Source: an uncultured Eubacteriales bacterium
GTDB lineage: Bacteria > Bacillota > Clostridia > Christensenellales > CAG-138
Assembly: GCA_902794055.1 (NCBI GenBank)
Contig: CADBGC010000001.1
Coordinates: forward strand, 1 to 47,948
DNA: 47,948 bases
Direction of reading: 5' to 3'
Every line of letters starts with the position of its first letter. Position 1 is the first letter of the stretch. The notes beneath the pieces were generated by a model that had not been told where the DNA came from, made no database searches, and saw only the letters and a list, made by a program, of their open reading frames with translations. A program made the position numbers and the translations under genes. Below, in pieces: positions 4,615 to 40,995 of this stretch.

Positions 4615-5544
4615 TTACTGCCGTGCATTCTCCGCCGCCTTTGCCGCGATCAGCGCAGCGAGGCGGACGTTGTTGTACACAAGCGCGATATTTGCCTCAA
4701 GGCTCTCGCCGTCGGTAAGCTCCGAGATGCGCTTGAGAAGGAACGGGGTTATATCCCTGCCGTCCAGCCTCAGCTTTTCGGCCTCCTTGACGGCGCGCAC
4801 CGTGGCCTTCTCGATCTTCTCGCCGTCCGGCGCATACTTTTCGGGTATCGGGTTCACGATCACCATGCCGCTCTGCATATCGAGCGCATCCATCGCCTCC
4901 ACCATGCCCGCAAGTTCCTCCACCGAGTCCGCACGAACGGGCGCTCTGTAGCCGCTGTCGGGAGTGTAGAAGGCGGGAACGCGGTCGGTACGGAACGCGA
5001 TCACGGGCACGCCCTGCGTTTCGAGGTATTCAAGGGTTCTGCCGATATCGAGTATGCTCTTCGGCCCCGCGCAAACGACCGCAACGGGGGTTCTTCCAAG
5101 CTCGTTCATATCGGCGGAGATATCCATTGTGGTCTCCGCGCCGCGGTGAACGCCGCCGATGCCGCCGGTGGCAAAAATCTTGATGCCCGCGCGGTTGGCA
5201 ATGAACATGGTGCCCGCAACGGTGGTGGCGCCGTCCTCGCCCCTTGCGATAACGGCGGGAATATCCCTTCTGGAAACCTTTTTAACTTCCGTTCCGGCCT
5301 TGCCGAGATATTCTATCTGTTCGTCGGTTAAGCCCGCGTGCATAACGCCCTTAATAATGGCGCAGACCGCCGCCACGGCGCCATGCCGCTCCGCGATGCG
5401 CTTGCAGGCGAGGGCGGTTTTAACGTTGTCGGGATACGGCATCCCGTGGCAGATAATTGTGCTTTCAAGGGCGATCACGGGCTTGCCCGCAGCGAGCGCC
5501 GCCTTGACCTCGGGGGATAAAACCACGTTATAATTAGTGCTCAT
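4615..5544 (-). CDS. psuG: pseudouridine-5'-phosphate glycosidase
   Basis: 309 aa. ALESTIICHGMPYPDN and FATGGIGGVHRG motifs. AAGGAGA SD upstream of ATG 5544. Confidence 0.85.
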   Translation of the reverse strand: MSTNYNVVLSPEVKAALAAGKPVIALESTIICHGMPYPDNVKTALACKRIAERHGAVAAVCAIIKGVMHAGLTDEQIEYLGKAGTEVKKVSRRDIPAVIARGEDGATTVAGTMFIANRAGIKIFATGGIGGVHRGAETTMDISADMNELGRTPVAVVCAGPKSILDIGRTLEYLETQGVPVIAFRTDRVPAFYTPDSGYRAPVRADSVEELAGMVEAMDALDMQSGMVIVNPIPEKYAPDGEKIEKATVRAVKEAEKLRLDGRDITPFLLKRISELTDGESLEANIALVYNNVRLAALIAAKAAENARQ

Positions 5545-5984: not shown

Positions 5985-6130
5985 TTTTGGCAAATTTCGT
6001 TTTTTTCGTTTTCAAGCGGCGGTCGAGCGGTAAATTATATTATTATTTTTTATAGCAAAATCGTAAACCAAAAGGCTTGTTCGTGCGTTTTATATAATGG
6101 AGTGAGCCTCATGTGTAACTTCGATCTCCA
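5985..6130 (+). repeat. direct repeat R1 flanking the AT-rich cassette
   Basis: Colinear with 8815-8961. Shared blocks are TTTTGGCAAATTTCGTTTT, AATCGTAAACCAAAAGGC, AATGGAGTGAGC, TCATGTGTAACTTCGA and CTCCA. Confidence 0.75.
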
Positions 6131-6381
6131 TACCGATTTCAACTGCCGCGCGTGACAAGGCATTCTGCGCAAAAAACGGCAAAAGCTTGTGAACCTGAAA
6201 ACCGATACCACGCTTCATGCGTTAAATAATTCCTCTCATTCCACGCAGGCGGGAAGCGCGCTGCCGAATACTGGCAAACTCGGATTATAGTGGCGGATTA
6301 AATAGCGCTGCGACAACCCTAATTTGAAAATACATTAGGTCTTTATAGAAAATTTTTCGGCATTTTATAGCACTTTTTCTA

Positions 6382-6410
6382 TTGATTTTTCTTGTGTATT
6401 TGTGTATACT
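6382..6410 (+). promoter_or_regulatory. cassette promoter
   Basis: TTGATT (6382-6387), a 17-nt spacer, then TATACT (6405-6410), about 120 nt upstream of the 164-aa ORF. Confidence 0.5.
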
Positions 6411-6531
6411 ATAAGTGTAAGGTGTTTTTATGTTAGGCAACGAGTTGGTTATTTGTTATCGGCTACCGTTGAAGCAATACTTGTTGCCGTAGCATAAGGT
6501 AAAACAAAAAGCTTACGAAAGGAGCATTACT

Positions 6532-7026
6532 ATGTCAGATGCAGCAGTAATTCATGCGGTATTCCATGAAGTATTTGGACGTCAGCCAGACTTCTTATCG
6601 AGTTTTAATGATCGATTGTTGGCGCAGAAAACCATTTATCTGCTTCAACGATTGGGTGTAACATGTGGTGACTATTCTTTTAGATGGTATAAGCATGGAC
6701 CGTATTCTCAGCAGCTACAAAACACGCTTTTGGAGTCTTCGCCTAGTTCCGACGATCTTGAAAAGATTACTTTTTCTAAGATTGGGCATTCCAACATTGA
6801 GAAGATTAAAGGTATGCTTGAAGAACCGCACGCTCCTTACGATGAAGCTCAATGGTTTGAGGCACTTGGATCAATTCAGTATTTGAAGAGGTATCGTTTT
6901 CCGTTGTTATCACGCGATAATATCATATCCAAGCTTTCTGAGCTGAAGCCTGGTCTTCGAGATCATTTGGCTAATTCAAGAGCATACGATGTGCTTAAAA
7001 AATATTCATTAATCATTGATTATTGA
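6532..7026 (+). CDS. small YwgA-like / Panacea (DUF4065)-like protein
   Basis: 164 aa with SD AAAGGAG 8 nt upstream. The segment RLLAQKTIYLLQRLGV...FRWYKHGPYSQQLQNTL resembles the KLQKLLY...GP(V/Y) signature of Panacea/SocA-like antitoxin domains and of B. subtilis YwgA, as I remember them. Confidence 0.55.
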   Translation: MSDAAVIHAVFHEVFGRQPDFLSSFNDRLLAQKTIYLLQRLGVTCGDYSFRWYKHGPYSQQLQNTLLESSPSSDDLEKITFSKIGHSNIEKIKGMLEEPHAPYDEAQWFEALGSIQYLKRYRFPLLSRDNIISKLSELKPGLRDHLANSRAYDVLKKYSLIIDY

Positions 7027-7049
7027 ATTGATTGTTTTATTTGTGTTAA

Positions 7050-8690
7050 ATGAATATGGCTGCAGATAACTTGCATACAACCGAATATAGAATCAAAATG
7101 GTAGATTCTATTATTGATAACGTGCATGGTTTTATTGGTTTAACCGAAGTTGAATGTGAAATTGAAAAGCTTCCCATTTTCAAGCGTCTTCAAAATATAT
7201 CTCAGCTCGGTTTAACTAGTCGTGTTTTTCCGTGCGCTCTCCACAATAGATATATTCATTCTTTGGGCGTTATGCATATTGTTGACCAAATGGCCACAAG
7301 GCTTGAATTCAGTGATGATGCTCGTCAAATCATTCGTTTAGCAGGAATGCTCCATGACATAGGGCATTACCCGTTTTCGCATGATGTTGAAACCGCATAT
7401 GATGATGCTATACAATTGAGCGACAGCCCTTCGGAAGAATTTTCAAACTATGCAACGAAAGCACGTGAAACTATTAAAAACTTAACGTCACCACAAGTCG
7501 ATGTCAAATTCTTCCTTGATCGGCGTAACTCAGAGTTGCATCACGAATCTATTGGCGAAACTGTAATAAGTAACAGTGCCAATATCAAAAAACTTATACT
7601 CGAGAAATACATAAATAAAACTGATTATTATTCTGAGAATTATAATTATGATAAGTCCCAAAATGAAAAAGTATTAAGGAGTATCATTCTCGATATTTGT
7701 GCCATCATTGTCGGCGATAGTAAGCATAAATCTGAGTTTTTTCCTAAAGAATTCGGAATGATGGTTCAGATTATGCATTCTGAGCTGGATGCTGATCGGA
7801 TAGATTATTTGCTTCGTGATGCAACATTTTCTGGAATCTCATATGGAGCCTTCGATTTTGGAGTACTGATTCAAAATCTCGATAAAATGCTTGATCCTGA
7901 TTCTAATGAATACATTGTGGGAGTAACAATCGATGGAATCGGGTGCGCTGAACAATATCTTTTGAATAGATATTTTGCGTACAGCCAAGTAATACACCAC
8001 AAGTACACTTCTATCCTTGGTTGCGCATTGCAAAGTGTTGTAAAATGGCTGATTTCAGATGACGAATCAGGCTTTCCTGACGAGTACAAAGATGTAAAGA
8101 AGTTGGCTGAAAATCACGAGAATGATGCATTGTATATCGGCTATACCGATGCTTTTTTAATGGACAAAATTAACAGAGCGTGTGATAATGCGAATTGTCC
8201 TGAGCAAATCAAAAGGCTTGCTCGCTGTATTAAAGAATATGAGCTGTTAGCTATGTCAAATCAAGACGATGATGAGTTTATTTGTTCTGGCATTGACGAA
8301 TCCTATATATCCGAAAAAATAGAAAATAGTAACCCGTTTATCGAGCTCGGTAAAACAGATGGATCCATTCAAGATGTGATTTACCGATATAGTGAAATGA
8401 GATTGACAAAGCATATTCCTCATAAGGATTTTGAAGAGCGTCTCAACAAAGCCGTTAAGCCTGAAGATGGTAATACTGAAGATGGTAATACTGAAGATAA
8501 ATCGGATTTTGCTGAAAACTTAAAAGCAGACTACCGCTCTGATCGTCTTCAAGATGGGCTTGTAATCGTAGAACCGAACAATCCTGGTTCAAAGCCCAAA
8601 ATGCTTATTGATTCAGATCGTTCAATGCTCCGAGACATCTATAATTTGCGTTACTGTGTGCTAAGGCGCTATTCCATTCCAAAGCTCTAA
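7050..8690 (+). CDS. SAMHD1-like HD-domain phosphohydrolase (COG1078-type, putative dNTP triphosphohydrolase)
   Basis: 546 aa. NVHGFIGLTEVE, PIFKRLQNISQLG, FPCALHNRYIHSLGV, MLHDIGHYPFSH and DADRIDYLLRDATFSG align by eye with the SAMHD1/EF1143 HD core (H..HD..D). No clear SD, so the start is uncertain. Confidence 0.8.
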   Translation: MNMAADNLHTTEYRIKMVDSIIDNVHGFIGLTEVECEIEKLPIFKRLQNISQLGLTSRVFPCALHNRYIHSLGVMHIVDQMATRLEFSDDARQIIRLAGMLHDIGHYPFSHDVETAYDDAIQLSDSPSEEFSNYATKARETIKNLTSPQVDVKFFLDRRNSELHHESIGETVISNSANIKKLILEKYINKTDYYSENYNYDKSQNEKVLRSIILDICAIIVGDSKHKSEFFPKEFGMMVQIMHSELDADRIDYLLRDATFSGISYGAFDFGVLIQNLDKMLDPDSNEYIVGVTIDGIGCAEQYLLNRYFAYSQVIHHKYTSILGCALQSVVKWLISDDESGFPDEYKDVKKLAENHENDALYIGYTDAFLMDKINRACDNANCPEQIKRLARCIKEYELLAMSNQDDDEFICSGIDESYISEKIENSNPFIELGKTDGSIQDVIYRYSEMRLTKHIPHKDFEERLNKAVKPEDGNTEDGNTEDKSDFAENLKADYRSDRLQDGLVIVEPNNPGSKPKMLIDSDRSMLRDIYNLRYCVLRRYSIPKL

Positions 8691-8730
8691 TGTATTGTAT
8701 AAATTTGTTAGAAACCTATCTTCTCAGAAT

Positions 8731-8775
8731 GCAGACACCGCAAATTCGATTCGCGGTGTCTGCGCATTTATTTAG
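8731..8775 (+). terminator. rho-independent terminator of the cassette
   Basis: GCAGACACCGC (8731-8741) pairs with GCGGTGTCTGC (8753-8763), an 11-bp stem followed by a T-rich GCATTTATTTA. Confidence 0.6.
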
Positions 8776-8814
8776 TGGAAGTATCCTGCTATCAAGATTA
8801 CTACACCTTAAACT

Positions 8815-8961
8815 TTTTGGCAAATTTCGTTTTAGCGCTTTTTGGCGGCAGATGATCGCCCAATTATTCTTTTATTATTTTTTTAGCAGAATCGTAAACC
8901 AAAAGGCATCCTAGTGCGTTCTATTTAATGGAGTGAGCTTCATGTGTAACTTCGACCTCCA
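8815..8961 (+). repeat. direct repeat R2 flanking the AT-rich cassette
   Basis: See R1 (5985-6130). Same orientation, about three quarters identical by eye, with several perfect blocks. Confidence 0.75.
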
Positions 8962-9046
8962 AAACCGTTTATAAGCGCTGCGTGGTGCGAGGACCACGCA
9001 GCGAAGGACGAACCCACCTGTTCGCCGGAACGGATAGATGACAAAG

Positions 9047-9081
9047 CCCGCCGCACGGAATATGCGGCGGGTTTTAGTTTT
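9047..9081 (+). terminator. strong hairpin terminator (T-tract on the plus strand; may also serve clpB in reverse)
   Basis: CCCGCCGCA (9047-9055), loop CGGAATA, TGCGGCGGG (9063-9071), then TTTTAGTTTT. Confidence 0.6.
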
Positions 9082-9116
9082 AAAAATGAAGCTTGCTGCG
9101 GATAATGAAGGAATTT

Positions 9117-9145
9117 AGGAAGAAATTCGCGCGGAATTTCTTCCT
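9117..9145. repeat. solo hairpin-1 module of the composite repeat family (copy E)
   Basis: AGGAAGAAATTC-GCGCG-GAATTTCTTCCT forms a perfect 12-bp stem. It has the same GAAATTC/GAATTTC core as copies A-C. Confidence 0.6.
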
Positions 9146-9171
9146 GTTTTTCGTTTATCTTCAGCAAAAGC

Positions 9172-11754
9172 TTACCGCACCTTAAATTCCCCGTCCTTAT
9201 AGTCCACGGTCACGGTGCTGCCCTCCTCGGGGCTTTCGGCGATTATAAACCGCGCTATAAGGCTTTCGATGCGCCCCTGGATAAAGCGCTTGATGGGCCT
9301 TGCGCCGAAGAGCGGATCGGTGCCGTTTTCGAGAATGGCGGTCTTCGCCGCATCGGTCACGGCAAGCTCCAGCCTGCGTTCGCTCATGCGGCGGGCAAGG
9401 TCACGAAGCTGCAGGTCGATTATGCCGCGCATATTCTCGCTTGTCAGCGCGCGGAAGTAAACGATCTCATCGAGCCTGTTTATAAACTCGGGGCGGAACT
9501 TGGATTTGAGAAGCTTATTTAAAAGTTCCTGCGTTTCGTCCGTCAGCTCGCCCTGCTCCATCTCGGAGAGGATAAGGTCGCTGCCGAGGTTCGATGTCAA
9601 AATGATGATCGTGTTCTTGAAGTCCACGGTGCGCCCCTGCCCGTCGGTTATCCTGCCGTCGTCGAGCACCTGCAAAAGCACGTTCAGCACGTCCGGATGC
9701 GCCTTTTCGACCTCATCAAAAAGCAATACCGCGTAAGGCTTTCTGCGCACCGCCTCGGTGAGCTGGCCGCCCTCGTCGTAGCCAACGTAGCCCGGAGGAG
9801 CGCCGATCAGACGGGAAACGGAATACTGCTCCATGTACTCGCTCATGTCGATGCGCACCATGCTTCTTTCGTCGTCGAACAGGGCTTCTGCGAGCGCCTT
9901 GCACAGCTCGGTTTTACCCACGCCCGTGGGACCCATGAACAGGAACGAGCCGATCGGGCGGTTCGGGTTCTGGATGCCCGCGCGCGAGCGCAGGATCGCA
10001 TCGCAAACGCGGCGCACGGCCTCATCCTGCCCGATTATGCGGCGGTGGAGCTGCTCATCAAGGCGGAGCAGCTTCTTTCTTTCGCTCTCAAGCAGCTTGG
10101 AAACGGGGATGCCCGTCCACCGCGCCACGATCTTCGCTATCTCCTCGGAGGAAACGTGGTCACGAAGCAGGCTGTTTTCGCGCTCCGCGCCCTTCTTCTC
10201 CTCCTCGGCAAGCTCCTTTTGAAGAATCGGCAGCTCGCCGTACTTGAGCTTGGCGGCGAGGTTCAGATCGTAATCGCTCTCCGCCTTCTGGATCTCGGCA
10301 TTGACCTGTTCGATGCGCTCGCGAAGCTGCTGCACCCTGCCGATGGCGTTCTTCTCGTTTTCCCATTTCGCCTTCATCTCGTTGAGTTTTTCGCGCTGAC
10401 GGGCGAGCTCCTCGCGTATCTCGCCAAGATGCTCTACGGTGTGCGAATCGGTATCGTTTTTAAGCGCCTGCTCCTCTATCTCGAGCTGCATTATGCGCCT
10501 TGAAATTTCGTCCATCTCGCTCGGCATCGAGTTCATCTCGGTCTTGATCAGCGCGCAGGCCTCGTCCACAAGGTCGATCGCCTTATCGGGCAGGAAACGA
10601 TCCGAAATATACCTATCCGAAAGCGTGGCGGCGGCGATCAGCGCACCGTCGTGTATCTTCACGCCGTGATAGACCTCGTAGCGCTCCTTCAAGCCGCGCA
10701 AAATGGAGATCGTATCCTCCACGCTCGGCTCGGCAACCGTCACGGGCTGAAAACGCCGCTCGAGCGCCGCGTCCTTCTCGATGTACTTGCGGTACTCATC
10801 GAGCGTAGTGGCACCGATGCAGTGCAGCTCGCCGCGCGCCAGCATCGGCTTCAGGATATTGCCCGCATCCATCGCGCCGTCGGTCTTGCCCGCGCCGACG
10901 ATGGTATGAAGCTCATCTATGAACAGGATAATTTTGCCGTCACTCTGCTTTATTTCATTCAGAACGGCCTTGAGCCTTTCCTCGAATTCGCCGCGGTACT
11001 TCGCGCCGGCGACCAGCGCACCCATATCGAGCGCGAAGAGCTTTCTGTCCTTGAGGTTATCTGGTACGTCGCCGCGCACAATCCTCTGCGCCAGCCCCTC
11101 GGCGATGGCGGTCTTGCCCACGCCCGGTTCACCGATAAGGCAGGGGTTGTTCTTGGTTTTCCTCGAAAGAATGCGGATAACGCTTCTTATCTCATTATCC
11201 CTGCCGATAACGGGGTCGAGCTTCTGCTTTTTCGCAAGCTCGGTCAGATCCTGCCCGTATTTATTCAGCACGTCGTAGGTGCTCTCGGGATTGTCGCTGT
11301 TTATGCGGGTGTTGCCGCGCACCTGCCTCAGCACGGTCAGATAGGCGTTTCGCTCGATATTGAACCTCTTAAACAGCGGCTTCAGCACGCCGTCCGCCTT
11401 CTCGATGAGGCCGAGCATGATGTGCTCCACCGAGATATAGCTGTCTCCCATCGCCTTGGCTTCGTCCTCTGCGCGGTTCAGCGCGGAATTCAGCTCGCTT
11501 GTGATATAGAGCTGCCCGCCGCTCCCGCCGCCGTAGCTCGCCTGCTTCTTGAGCTCGGCCTCGACAGCGGCGCGGAATGCGTTCATCTCAACGCCCATCG
11601 CGGTCAAAAGCTGCGCGTTCAGATCGTCCGCATCGTTCGTCAGCGCGTACAGGGCGTGTATCTGCCCCACCTGCGTATGCCTGCGCTCCTCGGCAAGCCT
11701 CTGCGCCTGATTCAAAGTTTCAAGCGTCTTCTGTGTCATTTTCTCTGCGTTCAT
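9172..11754 (-). CDS. clpB: ATP-dependent chaperone/disaggregase ClpB
   Basis: Two AAA+ modules ([10 protein letters not shown] and [10 protein letters not shown] Walker A), a long coiled-coil M-domain and a Clp N-domain. ATG 11754 lies 6 nt after GAGGTG; the ORF track started at GTG 11763. Confidence 0.95.
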
Positions 11755-11858
11755 ATTACTCACCTCACAAAAGGTTATTTTAACGTATTCATCGGAAAGC
11801 TATGCTTTGCCCGGCTATTTCTTTCGGCTCTAGCATACCGCTTATCGCCGCGCCGTTG

Positions 11859-11885
11859 TTAGCACTCTCTTTCCTTGAGTGCTAA
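11859..11885. promoter_or_regulatory. CIRCE element (HrcA operator) upstream of clpB
   Basis: Perfect TTAGCACTC-N9-GAGTGCTAA, immediately downstream (minus strand) of a TATAAT at 11892-11887 and ~105 nt upstream of the clpB ATG. Confidence 0.85.
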
Positions 11886-12029
11886 CATTATAACTCTTTC
11901 CGCGTGGTTTGTGTAGCTTGTTCACAGCTTTGTTCATGCAAATACACAAGTTTGACACAATTCGCCGCTTTCTTGCGCAAAAAAAGCGGTGCATGGGGCT
12001 GCACCGCAAGTTTTGGATCGTAATGATCG

Positions 12030-12443
12030 TTAGGAATGCTTCTGAACCGCATCGTCCACGCCGGGGATCGCCGCACTCTTGCCCTTGAGCGCAAGGAATG
12101 CCAGCACGAGAAACGCGGCGTAGCGCACAACGGTGATCGCATCGTCGAGGAAGCTTTGGATCCTGATAAGGGTTGAATAGTTGAAGCTGGACTTGAAGAT
12201 GCCGATGAAGCTGTTTATCGCCTCGAAAACGCCGGGAACGAAAGCGATAACATAGGTCAGCGCAGTCAGGAACACGTGGATCACGAGCGCCTTGATCGCC
12301 GATTTGCGCAGCCATTCGTCATCCTCACGAATGAGCACGTAGCCCGCCGCGATGACTAACGCCACGGTGTTGCCGAAAAGTCCGAGCAAATACACGATGG
12401 CGGCAAGCAGATTGGCCGAGATTCCGAGTTTTGATTTGTTCAT
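12030..12443 (-). CDS. small polytopic membrane protein, unknown function
   Basis: ORF 12030-12545 (TTG). ATG 12443 (MNKSKLG) is preferred. Four hydrophobic helices and no recognised motif. Confidence 0.45.
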   Translation of the reverse strand: MNKSKLGISANLLAAIVYLLGLFGNTVALVIAAGYVLIREDDEWLRKSAIKALVIHVFLTALTYVIAFVPGVFEAINSFIGIFKSSFNYSTLIRIQSFLDDAITVVRYAAFLVLAFLALKGKSAAIPGVDDAVQKHS

Positions 12444-12595
12444 TCCTCTTACCTTGCAGCGCCCGATACGGAGCGCCGCATCCTTCCTGTTTATTTCGGA
12501 GAGCTTCTCCACATGCAGTATATCATAGATAGGTTCAATCGTCAATATTAATCAAAACTGCCCGCTCTATACGTGGCGATCGGCATTTCTCCGCT

Positions 12596-12640
12596 CCCAA
12601 AAGCCGAAAACCGCCCGAGCATTTTCGGGCGGCCTTCGGC
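12596..12640 (-). terminator. terminator of the large secreted-protein gene
   Basis: Nested hairpin: GCCGAA/TTCGGC around CCGCCCGA-GCATTT-TCGGGCGG (12611-12632). The minus strand is followed by CTTTTGGG. Confidence 0.55.
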
Positions 12641-12715
12641 TTTGATATTGAGTTGGACTAACTAAAGTATTGTGTTTTAAGCTGTCGCGCGCGCTCGGCT
12701 TGGCTCATTCGCCCG

Positions 12716-15700
12716 TTACTTCGCCACGTTGGTGATGGTAACGCTGAATTGGCCGTTGTTTGTCGAGCTGTAATTGCCGCTTGCGAGAATGCTTTCGGGG
12801 TAGTTGGGTGTCCAGCTGTCAAGATTCAGCCAATTCTCTACGAGGTAGTAGGCGTTTGAATCGAGCACGGGCTTGCCGTTCTGATAGATAACGTTGCCGT
12901 TCGCATCCTTGAGGAAGACCCTGGGAAGGAAGGTGTTTTCGGAGCCGTCGTTGGTGTAGGCGGTGGACTTGAAGGTGCCCCTGAAATTATTGGCGCTGCT
13001 CAGAATAAGGGTGGAGATGACCTCGTCCTGCCCGTTGCCGCGCTTCATGAGCTTTACCTCGAGCTGTGCGCCTGCGGGAGCGCTGACACTGCCGCCGCCC
13101 GCATTCTTCCACGCGATGTTGACGTTGATCCTCGCCATCGCCCAGCGGTGACGGAGCTCGAAGCGGAAATTGTTTCCGGAGGTGTTCACAAGATTGTTTT
13201 CGGTGAGCAGCCAGCGGGAATCCGCATTCACGACCTTAACGGTGTAGTTGATAGCGTTGCCGTTTTCATCGAACTTCGGAATATTCGTCCAGCTCGCCCG
13301 ATCGTCCCAATTCTTGTTGCCGCCGAAGGGGTTGGAGAAGGTCTGAACACTGCCCGTGGGCTGACCGTTTGCAAGGAGCTGATAGCTGATGCTGCGGGGG
13401 ATATGCTTATCCTCACCGTTGCCCCATTCGGTATTGTTGTCCATGCTGACGAAGCGATTTACGATGCTGAAGTTCAGGTACTCCTGCTGCACGGCAGCGG
13501 TGGTGCCGAATACCCTGATCTCGGCCGCGCTCATGTACTTGTTTACGTCCGCGCTGCTGCTGCCGTAGGTGGTAACGCCCTCAAGCTTAACGAACTTCGC
13601 CATGACGGGGGTTTCGAAGTAAACGGTCTTGAGCGCATTGTCGTTGGACCATGTTCCGCTGCTTACGGCCGTCCATGATCTGCCGTCCATGCTGGTGTAG
13701 ATCTTATAGTTGTTTACCCTGCCGTTGACCGCAGTCATGCGAGGCTGGTACTCATACCTGCTGACCTGCGCGGGAGCAGCAAGCTCAAGCGTGATATAGC
13801 GCTCCTCAAGGGGCGATGCGTAGCGATGCCTGGTGTGCCACATGGTGTCGTTGCTGCCGTCGATCGCCTTCTCCCTGCCTTCGCCGTTCGCAAGCTGCTC
13901 GGTGGCGACACTGATGCCGCTTATTTCAAGCTTGTTGCTCGGATCGTTGCTCGGCTCGGTTTCGGGGCGGAATACCCTGATCTCAGCCGCGTTCATATAC
14001 ATATTAGCTTCGCCGCCGCTGTTGCCGTAGGTGGTAACGCCCTCGAGCTTAACGAACTTCGCCAGAACGGGGTTTGCGAATTCAACTTTCTTGAGCGTGT
14101 TGTTATTCGCCCAGCTGCCGCTGCTCACCTCGGTCCAGGATTTGCCGTCCGTGCTGACGGAGAGCCTGTACTGGTTTACCCTGCCGTTGCTGCCGTTGCC
14201 GGACTGATACTCATACCTGCCGATATAGGTGGGCTCGAGGAGCTCAACGGTGATGTAGCGCTCGGATGCGGGCGCAGCATAGTGCCACTTGGTGTGCCAG
14301 AGAGTGTTGTTGTTGCCGTCGAAGGCCTTTTCCCTGCCCTCGCCGCCTTGCTCGGAAGCTACGTTCACGCTGCTTACGCCGACCTGATAGTTGACGTTGC
14401 CGAAGAGCCTGATCTCGGCCGCGCTCATATACATATTCGCTTCGCCGCTGCTGTTGCCGTGGGTGGTAACGCCCTCGAGCTTAACGAATTTTGCCACAAC
14501 GGGGTTCTCGAATTCAACGGTCTTGAGCGCGCTGTTGTTCGCCCAATTGCCGGTGCTTACCTGGGTCCAGTTCTGACCGTCCGAGCTGATCGAGATCTTA
14601 TAGTTGTTTACCCTGCCGTTGCTCGCGGTCAGGCGGGGCTGATACTCAAACCTCTTGATCGCCTCGTAGGCGTTGAGCTCGATGGTGATGTAGCGCTCGG
14701 ATGCGGGCGCAGCATAGCCGTGCTTGGTGTGCCAAATGGTGTTGTTGTTGCCGTCGATGACCTTCGCCTTGTCCTCGCCGTTCTGCTCGGAAGCAACGGT
14801 CAGGTTGCGAACGCCGAGCTGAACGAAGCCGTCCTGATCGGGGGTGTGCGCGGGAGTGGGGGCGGGAGTGGGGGTCGGGACCGCCGTGGGAACGGGGGTG
14901 GGGTCGGGCATGGTGCCCACGTTGTGAAGTCTCCATTCGCAGTATACGGTCTGCGGGGCATCCGCATTTGCGGGGAACGGGTCAACTTCGCTCATGATGA
15001 TCTGATAAGCCTTTGAAACGGATACGGGAACGGTGTAGCCGTGCCTATTGACCATATTCTTATAAGCCTGAGCAACCGTGTTGCCGCTCATCATCTCGTT
15101 CCAGAAGGTTTTGCCCGAGGTGATAACGCCAAGGTGGCTGGGGTCCTTAGAATAGCCGTAAACCGCTGACGCGCCGGCCGCAATAAGCGCTCTGCCGGTG
15201 GTTCCGTTGCCGTCCTGCTTCATGCCGAAGCAGGAAGCGAGGTGGACAAAGCAGTTGGAAAGCCTGCCGTTGATATGGCCCTGTATGAACCTGCCGTCGA
15301 TATAGGCGATGTTGCCGTTGTATGCGGCCCAGCCCTTTGCGTAGTCATCGCTGGTAATGCCGTCGAAGGTGGTGAGGGTCAGATAGGTGGTGCCGTTGCC
15401 GTAGGAGCCGTGGGTATCGAAGATCACCACGCCCTTATTCTTGATGTGGTTAACGATGTTTGCGGCGGATGCCTGAGTGGACTGCAGAAGCGTGTAGCTG
15501 CCGCCGGTCGAATTTGCTATGCTTTGAGCTACTTTTTTGAAGTTGGTAAGATTGTACGCTACGTCGTGGCCGTAGTAGGGGCCGACGAGCAGAACGTTCC
15601 TTGAGTAGGGGCCGTTGTGTCCTTTGGTTACGGAAACTTCGGGATCCTTGCCCGCGGTGATAACGATCTTCTCGGTGTCCTGAGCACTCGGATCGTCAAC

Positions 15701-16042
15701 TCTTTCGAGCTCGTTGCGAAGGTGGTAGTTGTATGCGCAGAGCATACCGTCAACGCTGAAGAAGAAGCCGTCTTCGGTGAAATCGCCGAAGCTGTCCAAG
15801 CTCGTGTCCTTGAAGTTCAGCGCGGCCTGGTAGGCGGCGTTGATGACCTCTTTGCGGGAAAGACCAGCCGCGATGGCTTTCGCCTCTGCGGCCTCGATCT
15901 GCTGCCAGGCTTTTTCAAGCTTGCTCATCTGCCTGTTCTCACGCGTTACCGCGTGAAAGCCTTCGGCAAGCGAAAAAGCGGGGATCGCAGCGACGATCAT
16001 GAGGATCGCTATCGCTGCAGCGATGAGTCTCCTTGTTTTCAT
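12716..16042 (-). CDS. secreted multidomain protein: N-terminal clan-CD-like (HGS...SC) peptidase-like region, 3 x F5/8 type C (discoidin) domains, C-terminal Ig/Cna-B-like region
   Basis: Start ATG 16042 (MKTRRLI) follows GGAGG. Signal peptide, VVIFDTHGSYG and HLASCFG, a PT linker, three ~145-aa repeats (DGNNNT(I/L)WHTK...ERYIT(I/V)EL...AKFVKLEGVTT...AAEIR(L/V)F), then a beta-rich tail. Confidence 0.7.
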   Translation of the reverse strand: MKTRRLIAAAIAILMIVAAIPAFSLAEGFHAVTRENRQMSKLEKAWQQIEAAEAKAIAAGLSRKEVINAAYQAALNFKDTSLDSFGDFTEDGFFFSVDGMLCAYNYHLRNELERVDDPSAQDTEKIVITAGKDPEVSVTKGHNGPYSRNVLLVGPYYGHDVAYNLTNFKKVAQSIANSTGGSYTLLQSTQASAANIVNHIKNKGVVIFDTHGSYGNGTTYLTLTTFDGITSDDYAKGWAAYNGNIAYIDGRFIQGHINGRLSNCFVHLASCFGMKQDGNGTTGRALIAAGASAVYGYSKDPSHLGVITSGKTFWNEMMSGNTVAQAYKNMVNRHGYTVPVSVSKAYQIIMSEVDPFPANADAPQTVYCEWRLHNVGTMPDPTPVPTAVPTPTPAPTPAHTPDQDGFVQLGVRNLTVASEQNGEDKAKVIDGNNNTIWHTKHGYAAPASERYITIELNAYEAIKRFEYQPRLTASNGRVNNYKISISSDGQNWTQVSTGNWANNSALKTVEFENPVVAKFVKLEGVTTHGNSSGEANMYMSAAEIRLFGNVNYQVGVSSVNVASEQGGEGREKAFDGNNNTLWHTKWHYAAPASERYITVELLEPTYIGRYEYQSGNGSNGRVNQYRLSVSTDGKSWTEVSSGSWANNNTLKKVEFANPVLAKFVKLEGVTTYGNSGGEANMYMNAAEIRVFRPETEPSNDPSNKLEISGISVATEQLANGEGREKAIDGSNDTMWHTRHRYASPLEERYITLELAAPAQVSRYEYQPRMTAVNGRVNNYKIYTSMDGRSWTAVSSGTWSNDNALKTVYFETPVMAKFVKLEGVTTYGSSSADVNKYMSAAEIRVFGTTAAVQQEYLNFSIVNRFVSMDNNTEWGNGEDKHIPRSISYQLLANGQPTGSVQTFSNPFGGNKNWDDRASWTNIPKFDENGNAINYTVKVVNADSRWLLTENNLVNTSGNNFRFELRHRWAMARINVNIAWKNAGGGSVSAPAGAQLEVKLMKRGNGQDEVISTLILSSANNFRGTFKSTAYTNDGSENTFLPRVFLKDANGNVIYQNGKPVLDSNAYYLVENWLNLDSWTPNYPESILASGNYSSTNNGQFSVTITNVAK
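13505..14830 (-). repeat. three tandem ~440-nt coding repeats (F5/8-type-C domain units)
   Basis: Unit boundaries lie near 14397 and 13965, marked by recurring GATCAGG(G/C)T..TTCGG (EIR(L/V)F) ends. The units are clearly homologous at both protein and DNA level. Confidence 0.7.
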
Positions 16043-16525
16043 TTTTGACCTCCATTGTTCTGAACTCGTGAACCGTCGATATATTTTTTTGTGCGTGGTG
16101 CGAGATACCACTATGAGTTCATGTTTTGAATTTTATCAAATGCAAATGGATTTGTCAAGCATTTTTTCAATATTTATAAGAAAAATTTTTACTATCATTT
16201 TTCGTTTTCGGCAAAAATTTTATGCAGTATCAGCAAGGTTTACAAAGTACATTTTTCATTTTTAACTCATTAAAGGTATATTGTATCTCGAATTTTGTCA
16301 AAAATATGTCCTTCTAAAAGCCGCCGAACCTTCAAAAAAACGCCTTTCGTGCACGATTTTTTCCGCTTTTCCGCTTCTGCGGCAGCAGCTCGATTGAAAT
16401 TTCGGCAGCGAAGAACATTATATTTTCCGCCTCGGAAGCCGATAACGGTCGGAATCCGCCAAAGCGGGGCGGCTTGATGTAATACAATATATCGCCCTCC
16501 CCCGCCGTTTTCCCATCTCGAAACC

Positions 16526-19267: not shown

Positions 19268-20626
19268 TCAATCCTCCCCGTCCGAATACTCCTCGCGGCT
19301 CAATGCCTCGAACCGTTCGCGCATGGTGGGGCTGTTTTTCGTCAGCTTCTTTATCGAAAGATCCTGCGCCTTGTCGTTTGCAAGCCTCAAATTATTCTCG
19401 CTCGAAAGCAGCGCCGCCTTGGTCTTTTGCAGATGGTCGATCGTTTTGTCGATCTCGTCTATCGCAGTTTGGAACTTTTCGCTCGCAAGGCGGTAGTTCC
19501 TGCCGAATTTATCCTTAAAGGCGTTCATTTCGTTCTCAAAATTGGTGATATCTATGCTCTGGCTTCTTGCGACCGCAAGCTGCTGCTTATATGAAAGCGC
19601 ATTTTTCGCGGCATTCCGAAGCAGCGATATCATCGGGATGAAGAACTGCGGGCGGATAACGTACATCTTTTCGTATCTATACGAAACGTCAACTATGCCC
19701 GCATTGTAAAGCTCGCTGTCCGCCTCAAGCAGCGACACCAGCACCGCATATTCGCAGCCCTTTTCGCGGCGATCCTTATCCAGCTTTTTGAAGAAATCCT
19801 CGTTCTTATGCTTCTTTTCCGTCTCGTCCAGCTCGTTTTTCATTTCAAACATGATTGAAAGAAGCTCCGAGCCGTCCTCGGCGGTCTCGCGGAAGATATA
19901 GTCGCCCTTCGTGCCGCTCGAAGCATCATTATCCTTTTCGAAATACGCGCCCGGGAACGCCACGGCGCGCAGCTTGTTGAACTCGGTCTCGCAGTGCTGC
20001 TCAAGCGTTTCGCCCACCATCTTGGTGGACTGCTTTGCCTTGAGGTCCTTATAAAAATCTATCTGCACGTCCTTACTTTTGAGCTCCTGCGCGTGCCGCT
20101 CCTGTATATTCTTTTCCTTGAGCTCATTTTCCTTTTTCTCAAGCGCAAGATCGTTTCTAAGCTTCTGTATCTCGCTGTTCTTCTCGCTCAGCGCGGCGGC
20201 GATGCGCGTTTCCGCTTCCCGCTGCTCCGCTTCGAGCTTTCCGCTGAGGCGCTCTATCTCGCGCTCCTTCTCGGAAAGAAGCTTCTCCTGCGCTGCGGCA
20301 AGGCGTATCCTTTCCGCGTCGCGTTCGGCTTCAAGGCGGTTCTTTTCGGCCTCGGCTTCGGCGGCAATGCGCTGCTTTTCGGCCTCGCGCTCGGCGGTCA
20401 AGACCGCAAGCTTCTGCTTCAGCGCCGCGATCTCGCCCTCCTTCTTGGTCTCCGCCTCGCTGACGGCAAGCTTAACGGCGCTCTCCTTCGCATCGGTAAG
20501 CGCCTTCTCCTGCTTTTCGACTTCCTTTTGAAACTCCTTATCGCGCACCTGCTTGACTATCGCGGCATAGCCCGCCTCGTCCACCTGAAAAACTTCGCCG
20601 CACTTGGGGCATTTTATCTGCTGCAT
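19268..20626 (-). CDS. DUF2130-like protein: CxxC knuckle, long coiled coil, C-terminal PD-(D/E)xK-like domain
   Basis: ATG 20626 ([13 protein letters not shown]) lies 7 nt after GGAGGA. About 180 aa of Glu/Lys/Ala-rich heptads, then GDYIFRE...FEMKNE. Confidence 0.6.
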
Positions 20627-20806
20627 ATACTTATCCTCCGTAAAAATATCCATCGTTTCGTTTTCTGCGCTCCGCACCGTTTCCGAAGCAAAAACCCATC
20701 ATTTATATACTACCACAAGTTCGTGCGGCAGTAAACAGAATAAGCGAAAATGAATAAAAAGAAAAAGCGGAAATCCGCTCGTTATCCTCGTTATGAAAAG
20801 CCCTGC

Positions 20807-21088
20807 TCAACCCTTTTTAAGCAGCCTCCGCACCTCCTGTATACTGCGCTCTGCGCTGTCGAGCGCGTTTATAACGCTTTGCGTATCCACAAGGTTGTTT
20901 TCGGTTCGCCCCAAGAGATAATCTGCGGTCACGCCGAAGAAATCCGCAAGCTTGAGGATCGCGGAGCTGTCCGGATTGGTTTTGCCCGTTTCATAGTTTG
21001 AAAGCGTTTTTTGATCTATACCCGTAGCGGCGGCAACGTCAATCTGCCGAAGATCGCGATCCTCGCGCAGCGCTCTTATTCTGTTCAT
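20807..21088 (-). CDS. XRE-family (Cro/CI-type HTH) transcriptional regulator
   Basis: 93 aa. LRQIDVAAATGIDQKTLSNYETGKTNP is an HTH_3 motif. GGAGGTG SD 5 nt upstream. Confidence 0.85.
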   Translation of the reverse strand: MNRIRALREDRDLRQIDVAAATGIDQKTLSNYETGKTNPDSSAILKLADFFGVTADYLLGRTENNLVDTQSVINALDSAERSIQEVRRLLKKG

Positions 21089-21111
21089 AAAAACACCTCC
21101 GATACAAGTTT

Positions 21112-21135
21112 GGTATATTTCAACTGAATTATACC
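21112..21135. promoter_or_regulatory. inverted repeat overlapping the putative xre -10 (candidate autoregulatory operator)
   Basis: GGTATA-N12-TATACC. The minus-strand TGG TATAAT lies at 21136-21128. Confidence 0.4.
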
Positions 21136-21155
21136 AAAAAATTTCTATAAAAAGC

Positions 21156-21184
21156 TTGCAACAGGAAAATATTCGTGGTATAAT
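21156..21184 (+). promoter_or_regulatory. promoter of the divergent three-gene operon
   Basis: TTGCAA (21156-21161), a 17-nt spacer, then TGG TATAAT (21176-21184). Confidence 0.65.
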
Positions 21185-21189
21185 GCGTT

Positions 21190-21209
21190 TATACTAAAAA
21201 ATTAGTATA
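21190..21209. promoter_or_regulatory. perfect palindromic operator at the predicted TSS
   Basis: TATACTAA-AAAA-TTAGTATA has 8-bp perfect arms and starts 6 nt after the -10. Confidence 0.55.
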
Positions 21210-21235
21210 AATTAATTGTCACAGGAGGACACGGT

Positions 21236-21577
21236 ATGTTTTTTGCAGGGCTATGCCTTTTCTGCTTATCGTTGCCGATTTCCATCAGCATGATAAAAAG
21301 CTTGGATTTGATAAACAAGCATCCTTACACCTACCGACTGGCAAACGGCCTTACCAAGGAAACGGTCGAGGTTCTCGCGTTTCTATTTCCAATACTCGCT
21401 ATAGTCAGCATCGTTTTGATGGTTTTCGGCTGGATAAAACGAAGAAACAAGGCTTCACTGGATTCCATTGTCAACGGAGAGAAGCAAAATTACTGCGAAA
21501 GCTGTAAAATCAATGTTTCAGAACAGCACTCAGCCTGCCCCGTTTGCGGCAAATCATTAAAGAATAAAGGAGAATGA
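21236..21577 (+). CDS. small 2-TM membrane protein with a C-terminal zinc ribbon
   Basis: 113 aa with AGGAGG SD. Two hydrophobic helices, then CESC...CPVC. Confidence 0.5.
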   Translation: MFFAGLCLFCLSLPISISMIKSLDLINKHPYTYRLANGLTKETVEVLAFLFPILAIVSIVLMVFGWIKRRNKASLDSIVNGEKQNYCESCKINVSEQHSACPVCGKSLKNKGE

Positions 21578-21580
21578 CAC

Positions 21581-21892
21581 ATGGCACGCACAACAGTAAA
21601 GGTAAAATACTCAAGCTTTGATGGCCTGCAGAACAAGATTTCTGCACTGCTTTCAAGCAAGGGCTACAAAAACATTAACGAGAACAACGAGGATGTTTGG
21701 AAAAATGGAATGGGTTTTCTAACCGCTATGAAATACATAAAGATCGAGTTCGCCGAAAACAACACACTTGTTATCTCCGGCTGGTGCAGAGCCATGGCGG
21801 GCGGCGAAATGGATCTGAATGGTGTGGTCGGCGCTCTGCCTAAAAAGCAGGTAATGAACGTTATAAAGGAACTGCAGGCGATCGTAAAATAA
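21581..21892 (+). CDS. hypothetical 103-aa soluble protein
   Basis: AAGGAG SD overlaps the preceding stop. No motif recognised. Confidence 0.5.
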   Translation: MARTTVKVKYSSFDGLQNKISALLSSKGYKNINENNEDVWKNGMGFLTAMKYIKIEFAENNTLVISGWCRAMAGGEMDLNGVVGALPKKQVMNVIKELQAIVK

Positions 21893-21940
21893 CGCCTTTT
21901 GCTTTGGAAGAAAACAACGATATTCTATGGAGGTAACAGA

Positions 21941-22957
21941 ATGAAGAAAATTGCATCGCTTATCATCGCCGCCGCATTTATGCTGGTCGGTTTCGCGGCA
22001 TTGGGCGGCATAACTGCTGCCGCAGATTCATCGGTTCCATCCGGCTATGCTCCGAATGATTTTTTAAAGCTCCGCGCTTTCCTTGAAACCATGGATGCAA
22101 ACGGAGTTAAAAACGGCGAAAAGCTCTGCAGTGAGTTTGGCACAGAATATGATTCCGATGATCCCGAAACATGGGGAAATGTTGAAGAACATGATGGAGT
22201 TTATGGCGAGGTATTGTGGCTTACCGGAGATGACGGGCTTCGACACGCAGAATGGATTTTCTTCGGATATCTCGATCTTTTCGGCGAACTCGATTTGAGC
22301 GGGTTCGATCATCTGAAATATGTCAATATTTCGGCCAATCGTATAACTGCCGTTGATCTTGAAGGTGCATCGGCGATCGAGTCCTTCGTGTGCGATGAAA
22401 ACCCCATCGGCTTCATCAATTGGAATAACACCGCAGAGAACGTATCTATCAAACTTTCCGCTGAGAACGGATATGTTAATACTTATTATGAATGGAAGGA
22501 AGACTTTGCAAATTTTCCCTGTGCTTGGCGCGCGAAAGCATGGAATGAAGGTGATGCTCGGTTTATCGGATGGTATGATGCTGACGGAAATTGCATTTCG
22601 AGTGAACAGGAATATGAAATCTGTGAAACATGGGCAGGAGAGGATAATGCCGGAGCACCTGCCGACGTTCAGCTTGACCTGACTGCTCGATTTGAATCGA
22701 CCGTGCAGCCCACGGAAGAGCCCACAGCAGCGCCCGTCGAGCCCACCACGGCACCCGCCGAGCCCACTGCGGCACCCGCCGAACCTACTGCTGCGCCCGC
22801 TGAACCCACCGCTGCGCCCGCTGTACCAACCGTTGCCCCCACCGATGCTCCGAAGCCACCGAATACCGGGATGGTCGCGCTTTCAGCAGTCGGTATTCTC
22901 GCAGCAGCAACAGGGGTGATCGTTGGAGTTCGCGCCGCAAAGAAAAACAGAGCTTAA
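21941..22957 (+). CDS. sortase-anchored surface protein with an LRR-like region and an EPTAAPA repeat stalk
   Basis: ATG 21941 (MKKIASLII) follows GGAGG. Signal peptide, LDLSGFDHLKYVNISANRITAVDL LRR-like segment, 6 x 21-nt EPTAAPA units, and a C-terminal PPNTG + TM + KKNRA, matching the (S/P)PxTG sorting signal known for clostridial sortase B. Confidence 0.7.
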   Translation: MKKIASLIIAAAFMLVGFAALGGITAAADSSVPSGYAPNDFLKLRAFLETMDANGVKNGEKLCSEFGTEYDSDDPETWGNVEEHDGVYGEVLWLTGDDGLRHAEWIFFGYLDLFGELDLSGFDHLKYVNISANRITAVDLEGASAIESFVCDENPIGFINWNNTAENVSIKLSAENGYVNTYYEWKEDFANFPCAWRAKAWNEGDARFIGWYDADGNCISSEQEYEICETWAGEDNAGAPADVQLDLTARFESTVQPTEEPTAAPVEPTTAPAEPTAAPAEPTAAPAEPTAAPAVPTVAPTDAPKPPNTGMVALSAVGILAAATGVIVGVRAAKKNRA

Positions 22958-37345: not shown

Positions 37346-37642
37346 TTATTCGCCGCTGTCAAATTCGATTCGCTTATCCCGCTTGCGGTCATACTTCTTC
37401 TTATCCGGTGCAACGCGCGTAACGGGGCTCATTCCCTCCCAAGTGCTGCGCTTTTCGCCGTCGCGCTCCTTCCGCTTCTTCTTTGAAAGCTTGGTATAGG
37501 GAATGAACTTCGCCTTCTTAATTTCCCGAATTATTGCCGTTCTTCGCCATGGCTCAATTCTCCTTTCCGCCCCGTTTTTTCGAGTAAACGAGGCTGTTCG
37601 CAACCGCTTGAAGCTTTTTCTTAGGCACTTCATCATACTCAT
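37346..37642 (-). CDS. small highly basic protein, start unresolved (possible frameshift)
   Basis: The 98-aa ORF overlaps the 3' end of the M48 gene by 89 nt. A well-placed AAGGAGA-8 nt-ATG (37550) is in a different frame and stops after 10 codons. The Lys/Arg-rich tail FIPYTKLSKKKRKERDGEKRSTWEGMSPVTR resembles small clostridial proteins I have seen. Confidence 0.3.
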   Translation of the reverse strand: MSMMKCLRKSFKRLRTASFTRKNGAERRIEPWRRTAIIREIKKAKFIPYTKLSKKKRKERDGEKRSTWEGMSPVTRVAPDKKKYDRKRDKRIEFDSGE

Positions 37643-39887: not shown

Positions 39888-40786
39888 TTACCGAACTCCT
39901 TTTCATGCGATTTGAAAAACTCATAGTATGTCCGAACGTTTTCAAGCTCCTGCCACGGGCGCACCTGCACGGGCTCCGAATCGAGATCATACACCCTTGC
40001 GCCCTCGAGCGCAAGCAGAAACGGCGAATGTGTGGCGATAACGAGCTGGCAGCCGCAGTATCTTGTTAGCTCGGTCAGGATATTGAACAGCTCGAGCTGC
40101 ATCCTGGGACTCATGCTGTTTTCGGGCTCGTCCAAAAGGTAGAGCGTATCGGGCCTGAGCTTTTCATCGAAATACGCGAGGGCGGTCTCGCCGTTGCTCA
40201 TAAGGCGCGTTTCCACGCCCGCGGTTTTATGGATGAACTGCCGCCGCGTTTTGCTCCTTGCAAGCACCTGAAGCCGCAGCTCCTCGTAGTCCTCGATACC
40301 CGAAAGCTTGACCGTGTCGCCGTATTTGCGCCGCGCCCATTCGCCGCGCCCCTGCTCGGTTTCCTCGGCGATGTCGGCGTTATTGTCCCTTGCGGCGAGC
40401 ATATAGTCGAAAACGTCGTCGCTTGTGATGATGCGGCTGCCGTTCGGGATGCGCAGTTTCACTCCCTCGTCATCCGTGCCGAGCTCATAGCGGCAGGCGT
40501 TTGCGTACATATCGAAAAGCTCGCTTGAATTGAACGGCGAAACGCGGTGCAGCTCGAGCTTCTTGGCGATAACGTTCAAAAGCGTACTCTTGCCCGAGCC
40601 GTTGCCGCCGTAGAAGATGGTTATGCGGTCGAATTGCACCGTTTTAAGCCCCTTATGTGGAAAAATCCCGCATGGATAGCCGTTTTCAAGGTAGCCGAAG
40701 CTCGGCCCGCCGTTGTACGCCATGCGTGCGCGGGCAAGGGAGTACTCGGTATCCTCGTTTGGAAGGGTGAAGGAGGTAAGGTACAT
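39884..40786 (-). CDS. ABC/SMC-like AAA_21-type ATPase (no fused effector domain)
   Basis: 300 aa from ATG 40786 (MYLTSFTLP). GGNGSGKSTLLN Walker A, MSNGETAL signature-like, LYLLDEPENSMSP Walker B/D-loop, and IATHSPF H-loop. The ORF-track N-terminal extension (to 40873) reads through repeat copy D. Confidence 0.75.
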   Translation of the reverse strand: MYLTSFTLPNEDTEYSLARARMAYNGGPSFGYLENGYPCGIFPHKGLKTVQFDRITIFYGGNGSGKSTLLNVIAKKLELHRVSPFNSSELFDMYANACRYELGTDDEGVKLRIPNGSRIITSDDVFDYMLAARDNNADIAEETEQGRGEWARRKYGDTVKLSGIEDYEELRLQVLARSKTRRQFIHKTAGVETRLMSNGETALAYFDEKLRPDTLYLLDEPENSMSPRMQLELFNILTELTRYCGCQLVIATHSPFLLALEGARVYDLDSEPVQVRPWQELENVRTYYEFFKSHEKEFGK

Positions 40787-40791
40787 AGTTT

Positions 40792-40838
40792 TAGTGAATA
40801 GTGTATAGTTATGGCCGAAACGCCTATGGCGTTTCGGC
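40792..40838 (-). repeat. composite intergenic repeat, copy D (inverted; heptads plus hairpin 2)
   Basis: The plus strand reads TAGTGAATAGTGTATAGT, then GCCGAAACGCC-TAT-GGCGTTTCGGC (40814-40838). This is the reverse complement of the hairpin 2 + ACTATTCACTA module. Confidence 0.7.
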
Positions 40839-40995
40839 TCTTCCCCGCATTTTGTGTAAACGCTGCACGGCATGAATATTTAAGTGGTTCGAGGTCGTGA
40901 TGGACACATCCGTCCATCACGGTCTTCACAGCACCTTAGCGTAAAGGCTATAGTTTGTCAATGGCGCAAAGCTTTCATTTTACCCTTGTAGATTG

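Follow-up and report, generated by a model that had tools for sequence, protein, structure and literature searches.

Depletion of deoxynucleoside triphosphates (dNTPs) is an antiviral strategy common to animals, through SAMHD1, and to bacteria, through the dGTPase and Clover systems, and restraint of such toxic dNTPases is known for few cases. In Clover, the dNTPase CloA is highly toxic when CloB is missing, with a fitness cost of more than 10,000-fold (PMC12265719). Panacea domains neutralise many unrelated toxins (PMC8832971), and the DUF4065 (Panacea) proteins are homologous to the C-terminal domain of DarG (PMC13621843). The present analysis concerns a two-gene cassette at 6382-8775 of a 47,948-nucleotide (nt) stretch, referred to here as the window, from an uncultured Eubacteriales bacterium (contig CADBGC010000001.1), in which a YwgA-family protein is encoded directly ahead of an HD phosphohydrolase. 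With confidence slightly better than even, we infer that this pair is a mobile, protein-restrained, SAMHD1-like dNTPase module used in phage defence.

A YwgA-family protein encoded beside a SAMHD1-type HD phosphohydrolase

The cassette and its immediate flanks are laid out as follows, aa denoting amino acids:
5985-6139, no strand: left direct repeat (L-type copy), beginning with the perfect 19-nt core TTTTGGCAAATTTCGTTTT (5985-6003)
6000-8829 (2830 bp), plus strand: segment missing from the empty-site contig L025, the junction lying within the shared TTTTGGCAAATTTCG; equally 5985-8814
6382-6410, plus strand: promoter-like site TTGATT-17-TATACT, a consensus match only (9/12 positions), kept in allele B
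6411-6531, plus strand: putative 5' leader with a long predicted hairpin and a Shine-Dalgarno (SD) sequence, if transcription starts from the 6382-6410 site
6532-7026, plus strand: gene 1, an open reading frame (ORF) for a YwgA-family protein of 164 aa, which is proposed to bind and regulate the HD enzyme
7050-8690, plus strand: gene 2, SAMHD1/EF1143/YwfO-class HD phosphohydrolase of 546 aa, the proposed dNTP triphosphohydrolase effector
8731-8745/8749-8763, plus strand: terminator-like hairpin with 15-nt arms (93% complementarity) and a 3-nt loop, conserved in allele B
8815-8970, no strand: right direct repeat (R-type copy); the single copy of cassette-free strains matches it with 98-99% identity

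The positions and sizes of both genes, and the 23-nt gap between them, agree with a preliminary description of the window made from the letters alone, and every peptide motif quoted there was found; public gene calls start the HD gene at 7056 (544 aa) rather than at 7050 (546 aa). The strong SD described ahead of the small gene is AAGGAG at 6519-6524, 7 nt 5' of the ATG, and no clear SD was seen upstream of the HD gene. The low GC content described for the cassette was likewise recovered, with values of 0.35-0.41 over 6001-9000 against 0.54-0.63 in the coding flanks. The promoter reported at 6382-6410 is present, but as promoter-like matches in the AT-rich stretch are not enriched over shuffled sequence (15 versus 10.2 +/- 3.0), it is plausible rather than proven. 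The leader has a predicted minimum free energy of -32.7 kcal/mol (z -1.87), and the promoter, leader and first 67 codons (6301-6733) form the best-conserved part of the cassette between the two alleles described below, with 83% nucleotide identity. A hairpin does follow the HD gene, trailed by a weak T-rich tail, with the longer arms given above in place of the 11-bp stem first reported.

The bracketing direct repeats proved to be real and non-random. The two copies, of approximately 150 nt, are 81-85% identical, have the 19-nt core in common and lie 2830 nt apart, and no further copy was found elsewhere in the window or in 100 shuffles; the L-type copy is present only in contigs that bear the cassette. 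Scans of the window with Rfam and for tRNAs gave no match at gathering score and no tRNA gene, and near the repeats only chance-level matches to small RNAs, so that the repeats are neither a known RNA gene nor a tRNA attachment site. The 2.8-kb unit contains no recombinase.

The 546-aa protein is an HD enzyme of the SAMHD1/EF1143/YwfO class (COG1078). It matches the Pfam HD domain (9.8e-11) and, among Protein Data Bank (PDB) sequences, 2hek (2e-33), 2q14, EF1143 (2o6i) and SAMHD1 entries at about 1e-12, and a profile of its family strengthened the PDB matches to 3e-42 and 1e-30. An AlphaFold2 model, with a predicted local distance difference test (pLDDT) score of 88.2, retrieved 2hek, EF1143 (4lrl, 3irh and 2o6i), 2q14 and SAMHD1 in Foldseek at a probability of 1.00, with target-normalised template-modelling (TM) scores of 0.59-0.77, and the SAMHD1-type HD core named in the preliminary description is thus borne out by sequence, profile and structure comparison. 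More than 550 metagenome matches were found for the enzyme. In contrast, no Dgt-type model was matched over its full length above cut-off; these matches (PADLOC dGTPase, 33.9 bits; NCBIfam NF041026, 20.5 bits against a cut-off of 400) cover residues 44-120 only.

The metal-binding H...HD...D tetrad (H65, H102-D103 and D249) is invariant among 27 homologues and, in the family-profile alignment, falls on H167, H206-D207 and D311 of SAMHD1. H106, H111, H164-H165-E166, D247-A-D249-R-I-D252-Y253 and D257 are invariant in the same homologues, and H165/E166 we take to be the equivalents of SAMHD1 H233/E234, from their position rather than from a residue-level structural alignment. SAMHD1 residues D137, Q142 and R145, those of guanine allosteric site 1, correspond in the profile alignment to K40, K45 and Q48. 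By this alignment the allosteric site, a feature specific to SAMHD1 and not required of the wider class, is not conserved. As the catalytic residues are intact and the allosteric ones are not, catalysis looks SAMHD1-like, and regulation need not be. Most likely, the enzyme is a dNTP triphosphohydrolase.

The small protein had no Pfam match at an E-value (E) of 1 or below. Its family comprises 1899 clusters (50% identity) at E <= 1e-3, a number that falls to 696 when E <= 1e-10 is required, and one homologue, P0125, carries the JGI name YwgA. Positions 26-157 of the family profile aligned to residues 20-163 of YwgA from Priestia, that is over its full length, with a score of 28.1 bits and, in a search against two sequences, an E of 1.6e-10. 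Judged by this profile comparison, the 164-aa protein is a true YwgA homologue, as one half of its initial "YwgA/Panacea-like" naming had it. The other half did not hold: membership of Panacea Pfam PF13274 was not found, with only one of 125 family members giving a marginal match (E 0.0054), and the predicted viral structures of BFVD gave no match at E <= 0.001. The protein is thus no member of the Pfam Panacea family (PF13274/DUF4065), the group of the antitoxins PanA and SocA, no viral structure offers a convincing match, and the link to Panacea is indirect, through the C-terminal domain of DarG only.

DarG recurred across the structure and sequence comparisons. The AlphaFold2 model of the small protein (pLDDT 93) had a sole PDB match above a Foldseek probability of 0.1, namely DarG as it occurs in the DarTG complex (chains 7yk3_B/D; probability 0.97, TM 0.54-0.57, E 0.19-0.25). 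DarG was also its only PADLOC match (9.7e-5), its best NCBIfam match and the top hit of a profile-versus-PDB search (E 0.049). Four family members gave DarG NCBIfam matches of 5.5e-6 to 8.8e-3, up to the full domain length and all far below the 250-bit cut-off, and Priestia YwgA, which aligned to positions 175-333 of the 338 in DarG, had no other NCBIfam match, as was also the case for two further family members. These signals are individually weak and all concordant, and the only relative of known function that the small protein resembles is the DarT-binding C-terminal domain of DarG. One element of the model, a helix-helix-beta-hairpin, resembles a winged helix; no winged-helix regulator was among its Foldseek matches at E <= 0.001, and no DNA-binding autoregulatory domain is evident. 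Mimicry of nucleic acid by the small protein was considered and rejected, isoelectric point (family median 5.8; window protein 7.0) and charge being unremarkable.

Conservation of the pair and its exchange between strains

A conserved pairing, proposed in the preliminary description as a check, was strongly upheld. The small gene precedes the HD gene in 68 of 73 informative metagenome loci, is convergent just downstream of it in two and is missing from three. Relatives in IMG/VR above 220 bits carry the pair in 7/7 cases, with three further viral loci in that collection in HD-then-small order, and 10 of 12 genome loci found through the small protein have an HD gene on the same strand within approximately 1.5 kb, the five archaeal genomes described below being among these 10. 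Every context obtained from exact-protein look-ups contained the small-then-HD pair. The convergent variant is seen in L125 and L156, where the YwgA-like gene is encoded on the other strand, directly 3' of the HD gene. The two genes overlap in L010 and L029, compared with the 23-nt gap of the window, and in eight clusters of 664-672 aa (P0171 and P0282-P0288) they are naturally fused, the YwgA-like domain forming the N-terminal part of a protein that continues as the HD enzyme; as these clusters are 66-100% identical to each other, they represent a diverging lineage and not an assembly artefact.

The pairing extends to Bacillaceae and archaea. In the rsfA...ywhB-ywhD-ponA neighbourhood of Priestia megaterium, a 435-aa HD gene is followed after 24 nt by a 169-aa gene. 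The HD profile matches this YwfO at 7e-41, and the ywfO-ywgA pair is homologous to that of the window and on one strand, in reversed order (HD then small). The neighbourhood of ywfO and ywgA that the preliminary description gave for B. subtilis is thus confirmed in P. megaterium as to adjacency, with a gene order opposite to that of the window. In five Sulfolobales/Desulfurococcaceae genomes (L030-L034, about 10000-13080), a YwgA-like gene, an opposite-strand thrC-like gene and a 427-aa COG1078 HD gene follow one another, and their equal spacing in all five indicates an old, vertically kept YwgA-HD linkage. GenBank phages and PLSDB plasmids yielded only HD proteins of less than 40% identity. 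Among these, the Klebsiella matches from prophage records and plasmids had no small partner, and their neighbours (a LysR regulator, an oxidoreductase and a DJ-1/PfpI protease) look chromosomal.

Within the species of the window, contigs with an identical PsuG differ at this site, at which they hold allele A (that of the window), allele B (157 + 513 aa), other genes about 270 nt further on, or nothing. The empty site is seen in L025, where only one repeat copy separates the end of ClpB from Dabb. The two flanks of the window both map to this single copy, which is of the right-hand type with the junction inside the shared core. Contig L026, from the goat-abomasum metagenome-assembled genome "Clostridia bacterium RGIG1529", belongs to the same species, with CapA, PsuG and ClpB 97.6-99.7% identical, whereas aa identity to the window is as low as 53% for the small protein and 48% for the HD protein. 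Divergence between alleles is concentrated in the C-terminal half of the small protein, in the HD insert (about residues 117-230) and in the HD C-terminal region, the catalytic blocks remaining more than 80% identical. The cassette, described at first as mobile-looking, is thus strain-variable hotspot cargo, gained, lost and replaced by another allele between near-identical genomes. A second insertion point was seen at about 9096-9166, in the stretch that separates the right repeat from the stop codon of clpB; there, L020-L022 carry a 226-aa gene, a sigma-70 gene (150 aa) and a 410-aa gene, and L024 another gene, all without the HD pair.

Similar placements were found elsewhere. In Allofournierella the pair again forms an AT-rich patch within a GC-rich genome. 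A viral locus (L042, IMG/VR 3300045988_155446, 7476-9479) carries it between the large terminase subunit, with a small regulator, and the portal gene, which is a typical moron position. In Deinococcus yunweiensis (L035, 4817-16540), a pair of 198 + 566 aa has QueC-like and helix-turn-helix-IrrE/ImmA-like genes upstream and, directly downstream, predicted TniQ-, TniB- and Mu-type transposase-like ORFs, these functions being read off translations and not taken from hidden Markov model results; the arrangement suggests that the Deinococcus pair is cargo of a Tn7/Tn5053-like element. In the unrelated context of L001, direct repeats of about 310 nt (4834-5145 and 7792-8102) bracket a homologous pair; they are approximately 85% identical, spaced by 2957 nt, and each copy has an 81-aa ORF. 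A mobilisation sequence in common was considered and rejected, as the L001 repeats are not homologous to those of the window and L029 has no flanking repeats, and no tRNA genes were found in five related loci. The repeats of L001 and of the window hint at a common mechanism of insertion or duplication.

The window holds other loci of possible interest. The region 37554-47670, on the minus strand, is a probable second defence island, which also includes a 777-aa ORF without a match:
46822-47670, minus strand: PP2C phosphatase
44646-46787, minus strand: Ser/Thr kinase with leucine-rich repeats (PADLOC mad6 9e-46, PD-T4-6 1e-36)
43081-44652 and 41371-42885, minus strand: two AT-rich ORFs (GC 0.37-0.40), no Pfam or PADLOC match
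39884-40873, minus strand: AAA_21/AAA_15 ATPase, AriA/PtuA-like
Further AT-rich patches lie at 309-1145, 16001-16500 and 21001-22957, where the ORFs 309-1145 and 21899-22957 had no Pfam or PADLOC match, and a DUF2130 protein is encoded at 19268-20677.

Proposed mechanism and alternative explanations

In the explanation favoured here, the two-gene module is exchanged horizontally between strains and its HD enzyme would hydrolyse dNTPs. The YwgA-family protein, with a fold like that of the DarG C-terminal domain, would bind the enzyme directly and keep it restrained or tuned. The dNTPase would be set free when a phage infects or when the partner is lost, so that phage DNA synthesis would be starved and the cell arrested. 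dNTPs are the most likely substrate, and physical binding, regulation by the small protein (as inhibitor or as sensor) and an anti-phage role are in the same way the most likely reading of the sequences. The genomic context favours dNTPase activity, toxicity of the enzyme, its neutralisation by the small protein and phage defence, and neutralisation by direct binding is indicated indirectly, by the tight operon, the fusions and the likeness to an antitoxin domain. Because the partner resembles a toxin-silencing domain, adjoins the enzyme and in some cases forms one protein with it, direct protein-protein gating is the simplest model. In CapRel, a fused antitoxin-like domain senses phage-specific cues, and the stable fusions seen here would point to a gate or sensor of that kind rather than to a labile antitoxin.

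Several observations weigh against this explanation. No PADLOC system model matches the pair, and the dGTPase match is confined to residues 44-120. Homologous pairs occur as core genes in stable surroundings of a housekeeping kind, in the ywf/ywh synteny of Priestia and, with thrC between, in the Sulfolobales, and such core-gene relatives (Bacillaceae YwfO-YwgA and Sulfolobales) show that defence is not an intrinsic property of the pair. In a Lachnospiraceae species it lies amid ABC-transporter and cell-wall genes in the contigs examined (at least 24), the protein cluster being recorded on 257 contigs. Stable fusions are not what a classical labile antitoxin would lead one to expect, and DarG-style mimicry of single-stranded DNA is not indicated, because the small proteins are not acidic. 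Finally, a survey of 145 neighbouring proteins from about 33 loci had no background control; the RmrA-like proteins (4), AbiLi/AriA-like ATPases (3), DNA methyltransferases (2) and integrases (4) that it found speak for the favoured explanation and are suggestive.

A broader proposal, which is possible but which we regard as tentative and rather doubtful, is that YwgA/DarG-C-terminal-domain-like proteins make up a general class of protein partners, ancient in origin, by which SAMHD1-type dNTPases are gated directly. The housekeeping YwfO-YwgA of Firmicutes and archaea would have been repeatedly recruited onto phages, transposons and hotspots for anti-phage dNTP depletion, and phage-specific cues would be sensed, much as in CapRel, by the hypervariable C-terminal half of the small protein and, on the enzyme, by its variable insert and variable C-terminal domain.

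The main rival is a housekeeping role, in which a diverged YwfO-YwgA paralogue would adjust or sanitise the (d)NTP pool with YwgA as regulatory subunit, would play no part against phages, and would vary between strains simply because it is dispensable. In Bacillaceae the same pair indeed belongs to the syntenic core, in the five Sulfolobales/Desulfurococcaceae genomes it has housekeeping genes nearby, its Lachnospiraceae context is stable and not defence-like, and a YwfO homologue, MMSYN1_0127, is kept in the minimal Mycoplasma genome Syn3.0 (PMC4993169). Such a role is nevertheless disfavoured by a GC content about 20 points below that of the host in two genera, by an empty site and alleles only 48-53% identical within one species, by relatives inside a phage structural-gene block and beside Tn7-like genes, and by divergence that is greatest in the non-catalytic segments. 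We thus consider it unlikely as an account of the window pair.

An addiction-type type II toxin-antitoxin system, in which an HD toxin and a YwgA-like antitoxin would stabilise the DNA that carries them without sensing phages, appears distinctly less probable. It would agree with the small gene coming first, with spacing that is tight or overlapping (the 23-nt gap here; the overlaps of L010 and L029), with the homology of the small protein to the toxin-binding domain of an antitoxin and with the presence of the pair on mobile elements. Covalent fusions and chromosomal core orthologues, however, misfit a labile-antitoxin system, and the DNA-binding autoregulatory domain looked for above is not evident, with no winged-helix regulator among the Foldseek matches at E <= 0.001.

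Equally improbable, in our view, is that the HD enzyme acts on a substrate other than dNTPs (immune signalling nucleotides, NTPs, (p)ppGpp or nucleic acid) and that the module is a counter-defence or regulatory device of mobile elements. HD-superfamily enzymes act on many substrates, the non-catalytic regions are highly diverged, the pair is found inside a phage genome, and the SAMHD1 allosteric residues D137, Q142 and R145 are K40, K45 and Q48 here. Against this stand the conserved residues, since the H..HD..D tetrad, the HE dyad, the additional histidines and D-x-D-R-x-D-Y...D all agree with the set found in the dNTPases SAMHD1 and EF1143, and the presence of these two enzymes among the nearest solved relatives, of which the two closest, 2hek and 2q14, carry no more specific deposited names than hypothetical protein and phosphohydrolase. 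It is very improbable that the small protein only controls transcription of the operon, without binding the enzyme, since the winged-helix-like element of its model brought up no winged-helix factor at E <= 0.001 and left the DarG chains alone standing out (probability 0.97), since natural fusions to the enzyme occur, and since two loci keep the small gene adjacent even though it is on the opposite strand and convergent with the HD gene.

Comparison with known systems

As the preliminary description had supposed, the pair does not seem to have been described as a system. No PADLOC v2 model recognises it as one, full-text literature searches found no description of a YwgA/DarG-C-terminal-domain-like protein paired with an HD protein and nothing for "YwgA" with "HD domain", and text searches of the Panacea and NetFlax papers found no HD or dNTPase partner.

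Its closest counterpart is YwfO-YwgA of the Bacillaceae, as in P. megaterium, where both proteins are homologous and the genes are adjacent and on one strand; like the window pair, this is an uncharacterised pair, known by y-gene names. YwfO, of 435 aa, is shorter than the window enzyme, being without the long C-terminal region and most of the 117-233 insert, and in contrast to the variable AT-rich cassette of the window, the Bacillaceae pair has the HD-then-YwgA order and a core syntenic position. EF1143 of E. faecalis and human SAMHD1 have the same fold as the window enzyme (Foldseek probability 1.0) and the same catalytic residues. Identity to them is only 17-21%, however, and the window enzyme has no SAM domain, does not conserve the SAMHD1 allosteric site-1 residues and is encoded alongside a separate small partner. 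The anti-phage dGTPase (Dgt; Tal et al., bioRxiv 10.1101/2021.04.26.441389) is an HD dNTPase that depletes nucleotides during infection, which is the mode proposed here, but it belongs to a different HD subfamily and is a single gene without a partner. In DarTG, the C-terminal DarT-binding domain of DarG is the one relative to which the weak, concordant signals point for the small protein, which itself has no macrodomain and has an HD enzyme, and no DarT, as its neighbour.

In Clover, as proposed for the window pair, two genes encode a toxic dNTPase (CloA) and a partner that restrains it (CloB) (PMC12265719). CloB belongs to the Pol-beta nucleotidyltransferases, has a [D/E]h[D/E] active site and makes an inhibitory nucleotide, p3diT (PMC12265719), whereas the window partner has neither the family, the motif nor the fold of a nucleotidyltransferase and resembles a protein-binding antitoxin domain. 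Exchanged between strains and found with phages and transposon-like genes, the pair is a good candidate for a protein-regulated, nucleotide-depleting anti-phage system. If this is true, it would give the long-uncharacterised ywfO-ywgA of Bacillus a testable function, and would add to the few known cases of dNTPase restraint one that is purely protein-based, in which a domain of the DarG toxin-binding type would act on the bacterial HD subfamily closest to SAMHD1.

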